A stretch of DNA of 32,970 nt from a virus (taxonomy: Duplodnaviria > Caudoviricetes): the IMG/VR virus record IMGVR_UViG_3300020365_000066, positions 1 through 32,970 of that record; one strand, written 5' to 3'. The notes under the pieces are model-generated. The model saw nothing but the letters and a program-made list of their open reading frames with translations, was not told where the DNA came from and did not search any database. The translations under genes were made by a program, and so were the position numbers. Shown one piece after another: positions 602 to 25,977 of the stretch (its first letter is position 1; every line of letters begins with the position of its first letter).

Positions 602-609
602 AACCACAT

Positions 610-842
610 CGTTCATCCTATGTTAGCAATGCTGCTAGCGATGACCCTCGCTCATCATGATGATGGCAACCCTTATGGGTGGCACATGAGTTGTGAAAGG
701 TTCCTACAGAAACGAGTTGAAATCCTTATGGATGACAACTTGGATCGTAGATCTAAATATAACTTGATAAGTTACTTTAGGTCTAAGGTGGAGGGTCAAT
801 GCAATCAGACTCTAACTTAGGACGCAAGTAAGTCGCGGAACG
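610..842 (+). ncRNA. Glutamine riboswitch-like unit 1 (glnA/Downstream-peptide type) with an ORF in the P2 loop
   Basis: P1 CGTTC (610-614)/GAACG (838-842); P2 TCCTA (616-620)/TAGGA (818-822); junction CGCAAGTA-AGTCG. Confidence 0.6.
620..820 (+). CDS. Small hypothetical protein with hydrophobic N-terminus and two Cys
   Basis: 66 aa ORF; signal-like N-terminus; MSC-x35-C pattern shared with the next ORF. Confidence 0.75.
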   Translation: MLAMLLAMTLAHHDDGNPYGWHMSCERFLQKRVEILMDDNLDRRSKYNLISYFRSKVEGQCNQTLT

Positions 843-845
843 GAG

Positions 846-1024
846 CGTTCACCCCATGTTTGAACTTCTATTATATTCATCGATGGCGTGTCCAGATGCT
901 GATGCTTTGATCTTTCGGATCAAAAAGCAAGAGCACTTGGAACCAGAGATCAGAATAGAACTGGTTGAAACCGTAAAGGAATCTGTACCAGAATGCTACT
1001 GGGGCGCAAACGACTGAAGGAACG
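846..1024 (+). ncRNA. Glutamine-II (Downstream-peptide) riboswitch-like unit 2 with an ORF in the P2 loop
   Basis: P1 CGTTC (846-850)/GAACG (1020-1024); P2 CCCCA (852-856)/TGGGG (1000-1004); CGACT (1011-1015) complementary to upstream AGTCG (831-835) as a pseudoknot; lies directly upstream of a DUF4278-like ORF. Confidence 0.65.
856..1017 (+). CDS. Small hypothetical protein (53 aa), probable distant paralog of 620..820
   Basis: Translated by hand: MFELLLYSSMACPDADALIFRIKKQEHLEPEIRIELVETVKESVPECYWGAND; GGAG at 842-845. Confidence 0.7.
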   Translation: MFELLLYSSMACPDADALIFRIKKQEHLEPEIRIELVETVKESVPECYWGAND

Positions 1025-1059
1025 GCACTAAACCGCCTAGTATTTCAGGAGCACCTACA

Positions 1060-1227
1060 ATGAACACACTTCAGCTTGTAAAGAAGCAGATCAACAAAGC
1101 ATCTGCCCTACATGATGCACAGATCTCTCACACTGCATACCGTGGTGTAGAGTATAATGTGTGTGATGTAAAGAGCATCGAAACTCACGGTACATACACA
1201 TACCGTGGTCGCACCTATACCAAGTGA
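1060..1227 (+). CDS. DUF4278-like small protein (55 aa)
   Basis: MNTLQLVKKQINKASALHDAQISHTAYRGVEY...TYTYRGRTYTK; two YRGxxY motifs; AGGAG SD upstream. Confidence 0.85.
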   Translation: MNTLQLVKKQINKASALHDAQISHTAYRGVEYNVCDVKSIETHGTYTYRGRTYTK

Positions 1228-23704: not shown

Positions 23705-24159
23705 ATGCTGAAGAATTTTGTGATAAACTAGAAGGATATTACGATAGTTGGAAGCAGGCATCTGCTGATCCTGCCAGATACGCTCATGTCAAAATTCGCT
23801 GGACTAGACTAGGACCCAAACAACTAGAGTCTAAACAATGGTATCACTATCTTGGTGAGGAAAAACCATACAGAAAGCGGTGGCATAAAGTTTATACCGA
23901 AGGTGATCACATCCGTGTTGAAAACTGGGGAGTAAATTGGCAGGGACATCGTAATTGTTGTGATATGATATTCACTCTAGAGAACGGTATCTACAAAGGT
24001 AAAGTTGCTACAGATGAGTGTATTGTGAATGGCGGATTTGTCGAAAGTATGGTAGAATTCGACGGTACTAGATACAAGAGTCGTGACCGAGGATGGACCG
24101 CGAACCGCAGTAAAAAAATGTGGGGCAGCGATGTGATTTATGAATTTTTGGGAGTGTGA
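23701..24159 (+). CDS. cpeT: CpeT/CpcT-like phycobilin lyase, copy 1
   Basis: W.QA..DP..YAH, PYR, CDMIF, SRDRG, WGS..YEF. Confidence 0.8.
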   Translation: MNAEEFCDKLEGYYDSWKQASADPARYAHVKIRWTRLGPKQLESKQWYHYLGEEKPYRKRWHKVYTEGDHIRVENWGVNWQGHRNCCDMIFTLENGIYKGKVATDECIVNGGFVESMVEFDGTRYKSRDRGWTANRSKKMWGSDVIYEFLGV

Positions 24160-24233
24160 CGGAATCGGTAGACGTATCGGACTTAAAATCCGCTGATGGT
24201 AACATCGTGGGGGTTCAAGTCCCCCCACTCCTA
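24150..24233 (+). tRNA. tRNA-Leu(TAA)
   Basis: Acceptor GGGAGTG/CACTCCT, anticodon loop CTTAAAA, long variable arm, GTTCAAGTC; CCA not encoded. Confidence 0.93.
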
Positions 24234-25050: not shown

Positions 25051-25101
25051 AGCAACGGTTTTGTAAACCGTAGGTCGTCGGTTCAAGTCCGACATGTGGC
25101 T
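25028..25101 (+). tRNA. tRNA-Thr(TGT)
   Basis: TAGCTCAGCTGGATAGAGC D-arm, ACGGT-TTTGTAA-ACCGT, GTCGG-TTCAAGT-CCGAC; one mismatch in acceptor stem. Confidence 0.92.
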
Positions 25102-25365
25102 TTCCACTTTTGTGGAATAGGTGACGCCACCTACATTTCGGACAGGGGTTCGATTCCCCTCACTTCCATTCACGGGGGTGCCATGGTTTCGACGGGGTAC
25201 AAGGAGCGTGACTGAAACCTGCTTGGATAAGCACCCAATAGATGCAAACACATCTGATGTCGCAGCGAACAACATCGTTGCATTCTCCCGTCAAGCAGCC
25301 CCTGTTGCTGCCTGACCTATAAGGAGATCGGGGTCAAGTTAGCCTTGTTACCCAAGTAACTCACT
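25102..25365 (+). ncRNA. ssrA: Permuted two-piece tmRNA, marine cyanobacterial type (outer ends approximate)
   Basis: Acceptor piece first (T-arm AGGGG-TTCGATT-CCCCT, CACTTCC-A ending 25168), 5 nt spacer, coding piece starting GGGGGTG (25174) with GGTTTCGAC; G3.U70 pair; tag ANNIVAFSRQAAPVAA* (25265-25315). Confidence 0.92.
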
Positions 25366-25389
25366 GGGGGTGGAATGCCCCCTCTTATC

Positions 25390-25914
25390 ATGCAAATATT
25401 CGATAACTTTCTAAAACCTGAAGAGCATGAAAAACTGCAGTCTTACATGATTGCTGGTCCATTACCATGGATTCTATGTAAGAAAGCAGGAGATGATGAC
25501 TCTATGATGAATTATCAGTTCATTCATCCATTTTTCAGGCAAGAGAGTCAATATCATTATGACATGACAAAATCTCCACACTTTGACACAATTACACCAA
25601 TTCTAGACAACCTAAATATTCTCGCTTTGCATCGAGTGAAGGCAAATCTAGAACCAATCAAACCAGAAAGATATTACAGTGATTTTCATCATGACTATAG
25701 AGGTAGTGATGGAAAACCCAGTAAGAAAATGACAACTGGCATATATTATGTCAATAGTAACGATGGTTATACTGAGTTTGAGGATGGTAAAACTGTCAAC
25801 TCCATTGCAAATAGGATGATTTTGTTTAGATCTGACAGACTTCACAGAGGAGTTAGTCAACTGGACGCTCAGGTCAGATGTGTGATAAACTTCAACTTCT
25901 TTATGGGGAATTAG
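25390..25914 (+). CDS. 2OG-Fe(II) oxygenase
   Basis: IFDNFL, HHD (HxD), TTGIYYVN, NRMILF...HRG, RCVINFNF. Confidence 0.85.
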   Translation: MQIFDNFLKPEEHEKLQSYMIAGPLPWILCKKAGDDDSMMNYQFIHPFFRQESQYHYDMTKSPHFDTITPILDNLNILALHRVKANLEPIKPERYYSDFHHDYRGSDGKPSKKMTTGIYYVNSNDGYTEFEDGKTVNSIANRMILFRSDRLHRGVSQLDAQVRCVINFNFFMGN

Positions 25915-25977
25915 CTCAGTTGGTAGAGCGCCTGCTTTGCAAGCAGGATGTCAGGAGTTCGAGTCTCCTATTCTCCA
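25905..25977 (+). tRNA. tRNA-Ala(TGC)
   Basis: GGGGAAT/ATTCTCC with G3.U70, CCTGC-TTTGCAA-GCAGG, GTTCGAGT; CCA not encoded. Confidence 0.95.

Follow-up and report, generated by a model that had tools for sequence, protein, structure and literature searches.

Two small genes in the P2 loops of a probable cyanophage class I glutamine riboswitch with a permuted second core in its P3 loop

Group I introns carry ORFs, including homing endonuclease genes, in their peripheral loops. The usual layout of a riboswitch is a compact, non-coding aptamer with the gene behind it. At the cyanophage locus described here, genes lie inside the probable sensor and share bases with it. In the leader of gifB/DUF4278 genes, the glnA aptamer is a translational ON switch, according to the accessible part of PMC6212724. 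For glutamine-II RNA, the accessible part of PMC6698751 describes a structure in which C1, G18, C39 and G40 contact the ligand and C19 pairs with G41, and reports that a core built from two separate strands still binds glutamine; the roles of the bases equivalent to the junction at 823-827 below are taken from the same text.

The window, meaning the whole stretch of DNA that we analyzed, is a 33-kb fragment (32,970 nt) of the viral record IMGVR_UViG_3300020365_000066, and the features of the locus given below lie on its plus strand. On balance, we favor a reading in which two genes sit within the P2 loops of a class I riboswitch, likely a functional one, that is predicted to hold a permuted core in its P3 loop, with glutamine likely turning on translation of the gene that begins at 1060. 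The letters and coordinates behind the original prediction, which described two interlocked aptamers, were all correct when the window was reread.

The outer core begins with the P1 5′ strand CGTTC and A615 (610-615; invariant in alignment A2). It resumes after the first insert with the P2 3′ strand (which includes a TAG), the C-GCAA junction (G824, linchpin C825) and the E-loop strand GTA (818-830; A2 and RF01739 alignments of empty alleles), followed by the P3 5′ strand AGTCG (831-835), which pairs with 1011-1015 and is common to both cores. Next come CG and the inner P1 hairpin (838-842/846-850) with its loop G843-A844-G845 (836-851; linker covariation) and, beyond the second insert, the inner P2 3′ strand, a C-GCAA junction (G1006; linchpin C1007 with G843) and A1010 (1000-1010; A2). 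The outer core then closes with the P3 3′ strand CGACT, the E-loop GAA, G1019, the P1 3′ strand GAACG and linchpin G1025 (1011-1025; empty-allele alignments and A2).

Several features point to class I. The outer core has the P1 CGUU[CG]/[GC]AACG, the A, P2 and the C-G[GC]AA junction, and its E-loop (GTA 828-830, GAA 1016-1018) and P3 are both present. AAA replaces GAA in about one third of alleles, and P3 shows two-sided changes among 177 alleles (AGTCA/TGACT in 3, AGTTG/CAACT in 2, counted with a parser that required four of five pairs). The outer linchpin bases C825 and G1025 can pair and do not vary in A2; among the phage riboswitches with a single unit that were examined, GGAA goes with AACGC and GCAA with AACGG. 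The equivalents of the ligand-pocket bases are invariant in filled and empty alleles alike (A2). The locus is likely a class I glutamine riboswitch of the glnA type (RF01739) in a cyanomyovirus, and a second core is nested in it. The inner core contains the pocket bases, P1 and P2 in permuted order. It departs from the linear order with its own E-loop and P3 hairpin, as A1010 and C836 replace the E-loop and P3 is shared; in filled alleles its 3′ bases double as codons. Its linchpin lacks covariation support because the pair never varies. The inner core would work like a class I core, though it is no regular member of RF01739. Glutamine binding is quite probable in filled alleles and rather probable at the inner core.

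The window itself yields no glutamine riboswitch match in Rfam, whether at the gathering threshold or with E relaxed to 10. Of 11 natural alleles in which both loops are empty, 8 reach the RF01739 gathering score (35.2-43.6 bits), and in 7 of these the match spans both units, with the inner unit as a 38-48-nt insert in the P3 loop. Of 10 alleles in which one or both loops are filled, none reaches that score, and 8 of them have no glutamine match at E up to 0.5. Thus, the predicted glutamine riboswitch cores held up in the empty alleles, as did the expected blindness of covariance searches to the filled ones. This is a blind spot of covariance scans, as cultured phages such as Syn9 (gp196-198) carry the layout unannotated. 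A deletion allele lacking inner P1 and the start of the second gene (L117:1359-1470) retains an outer core that scores 41.6 bits.

Region 540-1500 matched 423 phage records, all Synechococcus or Prochlorococcus phages or cyanophages by name, including Syn9, Syn19, S-CAM1 and S-TIM5, and we estimate that about 2300 stored IMG/VR stretches contain the central-linker pattern. We fetched 160 viral loci with the proteins of the second nested gene (ORF2) and the 1060 gene, a sample biased to filled alleles, and a further 120 loci with the central-linker pattern. With the window, this gave 281 sequences, of which 266 had the linker, 215 could be fully parsed and 177 were unique. P2 lengths fell into two size classes, of 12-47 and 199-408 nt in the outer P2 and of 12-27 and 140-245 nt in the inner, and the search for empty and ORF-filled alleles that had been suggested for this locus found both: among the unique alleles, 104 were empty/filled (outer/inner), 60 filled/filled, 10 empty/empty and 3 filled/empty. 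The loops in the window span 621-817 (197 nt) and 857-999 (143 nt). Changes between the empty and filled states number at least 16 and 9 on the tree, from which no polarity of ORF gain versus loss could be obtained; all tree counts are of low resolution, since the genes are short and probably recombining.

Covariation of the P1 strands shows how the two cores are joined. Of 267 inner P1 linkers, 236 have GAACG with CGTTC and 31 have CAACG with CGTTG, while none is mixed; neither the search pattern nor the parser linked these positions. The variant arose in at least 7 changes on a 127-tip tree, with 10 carriers. In the 15 fully parsed variant alleles, the first CGTTC and the last GAACG still pair with each other, and 2 of the 15 also alter the outer P1 pair to T-A (in place of C-G, at the pair with 1020; 2 of 177 alleles). 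In 27 hand-picked alleles (5 variant), the nested pairs form in 646/646 cells, compared with 32-52% for slid registers, and the tandem structure leaves 10 broken cells. Unconstrained folding gave the nested inner P1 a mean probability of 0.70-0.80 and the tandem P1 helices 0-0.14; for the window itself, the values were 0.33 for inner P1 and 0.21 for inner P2. Since the P1 covariation implies that 610-614 pairs with 1020-1024 and 838-842 with 846-850, it shows, at the level of sequence, a nested double core, in which the second core is circularly permuted in the P3 loop of the first and shares P3 with it head to head. The proposed pseudoknot between AGTCG and CGACT is the ordinary shared P3 helix of this fold. 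The proposed analogy with class II, a pseudoknot with upstream sequence, also gives way, as the accessible part of PMC6698751 places the glutamine-II partner strand downstream.

The P2 stems hold across the inserts. Their 5′ strands, both supported by covariation, are TCCTA (616-620) and CCCCA (852-856), ending in the A of the ORF1 ATG (A620) and of the ORF2 ATG (A856), respectively; the 3′ strands in the window are TAGGA (818-822) and TGGGG (1000-1004). In 160 inner-filled alleles, collected without requiring pairing, pair 1 of the inner stem is always Watson-Crick (T-A 136, C-G 23, G-C 1; 74% in shuffles) and pairs 2-4 form in 99-100% of them. The 60 outer-filled alleles, collected through their ORF, have pairs 1-3 of the outer stem paired in every case and pair 4 in 53%; pair 3 is C-G in 38, T-A in 21 and T-G in 1 (54% Watson-Crick in shuffles). 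Slid registers pair in 9-50%, and on the tree these substitutions arise repeatedly (10 and 27 changes). The P2 covariation that had been anticipated among homologs is thus seen in both stems, across inserts of 140-245 nt. As to the five-base-pair outer stem of the original prediction, its letters are present in the window, but only the first three pairs are conserved, so that the stem is partly incidental.

Both predicted genes within the P2 loops are borne out. ORF1 (620-820; 66 aa, phrog_6471) has a 12-nt leader without a Shine-Dalgarno sequence (SD), ends on the TAG in the P2 3′ strand and has a pN/pS of 0.18. ORF2 (856-1017; 53 aa, phrog_504; pN/pS 0.25) stops on TGA at 1015-1017, and its last codons, W-G-A-N-D-stop, are aptamer bases. 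The start codon is at stem position 5 in 157/164 inner and 51/63 outer alleles, and the inner stop lies within P3/E-loop in 156/164. GGAG at 842-845, 10 nt 5′ of the ATG, is the likely SD of ORF2; this GGAG is found in the inner P1 loop of 147/164 filled and 0/13 empty inner loops (raw counts, related alleles included). Both ORFs belong to a two-cysteine family: each of the 224 nested ORFs longer than 40 aa encodes exactly two cysteines, and the inner and outer profiles align with 97% probability (E 6.6e-11). The result for the inner profile, 50/51, may be inflated because the inner set includes an outer-type ORF of L238; with the outer profile, which is free of such contamination, 20/154 inner ORFs were recovered at E<0.001, rising to 61 when the limit was E<0.01. 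These comparisons show that the nested ORFs are, by their sequences, real genes under selection and of one family.

The family profile matches 1608 database proteins. The nested protein has no Pfam family, its Atlas matches are only viral hypothetical clusters (below 0.9), and Foldseek found only uncharacterized cyanophage proteins and nothing in the PDB at E<=0.001. ORF2 is predicted to form a two-helix hairpin (pLDDT 80). The hydrophobic N-terminus and the cysteine pair suggest an exported miniprotein closed by a disulfide.

The original prediction regarded the loops as slots for gene cargo in general. Since one two-cysteine family occupies both slots (224/224), the inserts are not arbitrary cargo. 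The only second kind of cargo, which is rare, appears to be homing endonuclease genes. One outer P2 loop holds an antisense HNH endonuclease gene (PF13392) with the stem kept (L118:843-1283, minus strand), and a putative homing endonuclease gene of 191 aa, without a Pfam match and so annotated in phage Sf-CH5, occupies the inner P1 loop in others (L086-L090:639-1250; L289:830-1445, Sf-CH5). In L086-L090, the ATG of this gene lies 7 nt past the linker GGAG, as if the SD had been taken over.

Further arrangements were found among the homologs. In seven proteins (P0001-P0005, P0038, P0099), the end of ORF1 reads in frame through the linker into ORF2; these could be fused alleles or artefacts of assembly or gene calling. 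Locus L238:644-1020 has three cores, a stand-alone unit followed by a nested pair with an outer-type ORF in its first P2. A divergent interlocked pair of the GGAA/linchpin-C type (L329:501-779) carries a two-cysteine-family ORF in its second P2 (TTACTATC/GATAGTGA). This ORF matches the inner profile at E 1.6e-9, and the pair thus represents the same layout in a second sequence lineage. Splicing of the ORFs was considered and rejected, as RNA-contig joints between 851 and 1005 hold other hairpin letters and are the empty alleles of other phages.

The gene at 1060-1227 (55 aa, phrog_545; pN/pS 0.19) is the likely regulated gene. It had been called a DUF4278 peptide: the ORF does match PF14105, weakly (E 0.0011), and has YRG motifs, but the score of 19.8 bits is below the cut-off of 25.3, and we call it DUF4278-like. 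An alternative, ligand-free helix between CTGAAG (1014-1019) and TTTCAG (1043-1048) overlaps the first bases of the SD AGGAG (1047-1051) and is supported by covariation. Across 138 unique 3′ regions, base 1016 and its partner are G-C in 61, A-T in 47, G-T in 27 and G-G in 3, and never A-C; the tree requires at least 23 changes here. The next three pairs hold in 135/138; the count excludes 20 of 177 alleles without the AGGA anchor, which fixed the first two pairs. Because this helix excludes P3, the E-loop and outer P1, it is as expected of a translational ON switch. From the sequence and by analogy, it is quite likely that glutamine turns the 1060 gene ON.

Nearest-neighbor folding does not support SD release by glutamine. 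When the bound fold was forced in ViennaRNA at 22 C, the downstream SD opened in 9 and closed in 24 of 45 runs, in a model without tertiary energy and with the window counted twice. The whole ribosome binding region changed little (from 0.51-0.55 to 0.56-0.58). Because this model already forms inner P1 and both P2 helices in the absence of ligand, the nested starts may be covered whatever the glutamine level, and the case for their silencing by glutamine is weaker for it.

Upstream of the locus is a sigma70-type promoter pattern (573-601; TTGCAT-N17-TATAAT) with a predicted start near 607-608, and the pattern fits 152/164 homologous upstream regions. An NtcA-type box, GTA-N8-TAC (556-569), lies just 5′ of the -35. 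Its consensus follows the accessible part of PMC6212724, and NtcA sites occur in cyanophages generally, according to what is accessible of PMC3037559. Within 70 nt, 98/164 unique upstream regions have GTA-N8-TAC, compared with 3-9 regions when the spacing differs and 3 on average in shuffles. Since the box lies 5′ of the -35, unlike repressive gifB-like sites, activation under nitrogen starvation is possible.

RNA-library contigs from several studies cover 602-1460, although they are silent on strand, level and whether there is a single transcript. Three contigs (two studies) stop at 602, 609 and 610, while contigs of two other runs continue upstream; one contig runs from 602 to 844, through ORF1, and contigs of three runs end at about 1370-1460. 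A predicted terminator-like hairpin (1494-1519) is the likely transcript end, and two further small ORFs (1224/1233-1328 and 1334-1495) precede it. Together, these data hint weakly at a transcript that starts around 608 and runs to the terminator at 1494. The ORF at 1334-1495, predicted to be on the same transcript, carries a YRGVHY motif; past the terminator, the ORF at 1664-1849 has a C-terminal cysteine cluster and is presumably CP12-like.

The locus appears to belong to phages. The two-cysteine family with the linker was found in 1 of 401 genomes of the family of the Synechococcus MAG, and this match sits on a 194-kb viral-looking contig; all 7 GTDB matches are in phage-type context. Phage-type loci also occur in contigs from assemblies labeled Nonlabens, Synechococcus, Rhodospirillaceae and Euryarchaeota (L285, NZ_RMVE01000006.1; L281, L282, L286, L287); these contigs are probably misassigned cyanophage. 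Single class I glutamine riboswitches (L291-L410) are common in viral contigs, in an estimated 1400 or so stretches; the short basic peptides encoded behind them are of many kinds, and several contain YRG motifs. The window also has a cyanobacterial-type permuted tmRNA (25086-25381) and two tRNA genes (24150-24233, 25905-25977). Phage Melnitz likewise combines a two-piece tmRNA with a glutamine riboswitch (PMC9004378, as far as accessible).

We propose the following mechanism. Without glutamine, 1014-1019 would pair with 1043-1048, masking the first bases of the SD that serves the 1060 gene. Glutamine, probably bound at both cores, that is, the outer core of P1 (610-614/1020-1024), P2, the E-loop and P3 (831-835/1011-1015) and the inner core of P1 (838-842/846-850) and P2, would steady P3, the E-loop and P1, withdrawing strand 1014-1019 and exposing the SD. 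We infer this step because of the covariation and the gifB precedent. In the bound fold, both nested starts would be locked in P2, with the entire leader of ORF1 in P1 and the GGAG of ORF2 in the inner P1 loop and linchpin, so that the nested genes would be made mainly at low glutamine. Ribosomes ending on the nested stops, which sit within the cores, would reset the fold, and competition between translation and aptamer folding is plausible from the anatomy. The NtcA-type box would supply a transcriptional nitrogen input. Control of the nested genes in the OFF sense, deduced from this anatomy, is possible but somewhat doubtful. The full scheme, a reciprocal cooperative switch in which high glutamine silences the two nested genes and releases the downstream IF17-like gene, and in which low glutamine with an NtcA-driven promoter yields the two-cysteine proteins of the nested genes, probably for export, we offer only tentatively.

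Other explanations differ in what they ask of the nested genes. The riboswitch might control the DUF4278-like gene only, with the nested genes as passengers, translated at any glutamine level, in loops that are free space on a strong nitrogen-linked transcript. Since an HNH gene sits in outer P2 and a putative homing endonuclease gene in the inner P1 loop, the loops are tolerant; the persistence of empty alleles beside filled ones (at least 16 and 9 changes of state) also fits this view, as does the formation of inner P1 and P2 without ligand in the folding model. Nevertheless, we consider passengers unlikely, as starts and stops are placed more tightly (157/164, 51/63, 156/164) than tolerance requires, and frequent ribosome passage would need to be squared with folding. 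The conserved ORF2 stop (156/164) lies inside the covarying anti-SD helix, and a stop codon survives whichever variant base 1016 takes (TGA/TAA), as would be expected if a ribosome ending there melted the helix and licensed the 1060 gene; ORF2 would then be leader-peptide-like, with glutamine sensing modulated or bypassed in filled alleles. Such coupling is quite improbable, given that alleles without ORFs also have the anti-SD helix and the cores and that the products are selected as folded two-cysteine proteins. A classical glutamine attenuator leader was rejected because Gln codons are few (one in ORF2, three in ORF1).

The remaining explanations concern the fold. Two independent tandem cores (610-842 and 846-1024) joined by an AGTCG/CGACT pseudoknot, the topology originally predicted, are compatible with the sequences of 236/267 alleles, including the window, whose identical P1 strands would allow tandem pairing as an alternative conformer. 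The Weinberg 2010 glnA alignment has such left halves as stand-alone units, and a right half by itself sometimes passes the Rfam threshold (L148, L271). This arrangement is nonetheless very improbable: both tandem P1 helices are broken in 31/31 variant alleles, where the P1 covariation fits the nested fold, the E-loop halves GTA and GAA flank P3 solely in that fold, and in true tandem riboswitches of phages every unit has a complete P3 and E-loop of its own. Hardly credible is a relic that does not fold in double-filled alleles, its bases kept by coding and start/stop constraints. The long loops and ribosome traffic speak for it, as do inner 3′ bases that are codons and an outer P2 with only three firm pairs, but two-sided P2 changes persist across filled loops, the non-coding core bases 610-615, 823-851 and 1018-1025 are invariant in filled alleles, and the anti-SD helix covaries.

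If the reciprocal switch proposed above operates, a riboswitch would control genes within its own aptamer, in a sense opposite to that of the gene behind it. The same letters are codons and parts of a switch that would link translation to the nitrogen state of the host. The natural, circularly permuted and nested core offers a testable design for cooperativity between two ligands and for opposite outputs from one RNA. The locus also provides direct, testable evidence for a still open proposal, namely that cyanophages sense the nitrogen status of their hosts (NtcA sites; PMC3037559) and perhaps influence the control of glutamine synthetase by means of DUF4278-like peptides. New here are the anti-SD helix over the ribosome site of the 1060 gene, the GGAG linker found only with an inner-loop gene, and the NtcA-type box. 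In the literature, as far as its text was accessible, we found no description of a nested glutamine core or of ORFs in P2, and older accounts of the tandem form may lie outside this coverage.

As in group I introns, a structured RNA tolerates a gene in a peripheral loop. Unlike those introns, this RNA is a probable regulatory mRNA sensor, with no splicing indicated, its cargo is mainly one small two-cysteine family, and the start and stop of the cargo gene lie within stems. Tandem glnA RNAs (PMC2864571; phage loci L307, L312, L338 and L368) similarly have two cores in one leader, which suits a sharper response; in these conventional tandems the cores are consecutive, each with its own P3 and E-loop, whereas here P3 is shared and one core is nested and permuted. 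Glutamine-II RNAs (RF01704) have the same ligand-pocket bases, no E-loop (like the inner core) and a small downstream peptide gene, as described in the accessible part of PMC6698751. Their extra helix uses the strand 3′ of GGAACG, while the cyanophage AGTCG/CGACT helix is nested and forms no pseudoknot; inspection of alignment A2 by eye found no complement for a helix of that type, with strands 5′ and 3′ of GGAACG, and only 2/19 sources reached the RF01704 cut-off. Glutamine riboswitches are also present in the marine myovirus genomes of S-CREM1 (PMC9964418) and phage Melnitz (PMC9004378), reported as single Rfam hits, with no nested core or loop genes mentioned in the accessible parts of these papers. 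With the Synechocystis gifB/IF17 leader (RF01739), as described in the accessible text of PMC6212724, the cyanophage RNA shares P1, P2, the G[GC]AA junction with its linchpin, the E-loop and P3, as well as the position before a DUF4278-like gene, an NtcA-type site in the promoter and the anti-SD helix with the 3′ side of the aptamer. It differs from that leader in having a second, permuted core in P3 and whole genes in the P2 loops, a start, a stop and an SD made of aptamer bases, invisibility to Rfam when filled, and an NtcA box 5′ of the -35, where that of gifB lies over the -10 and transcription start site.
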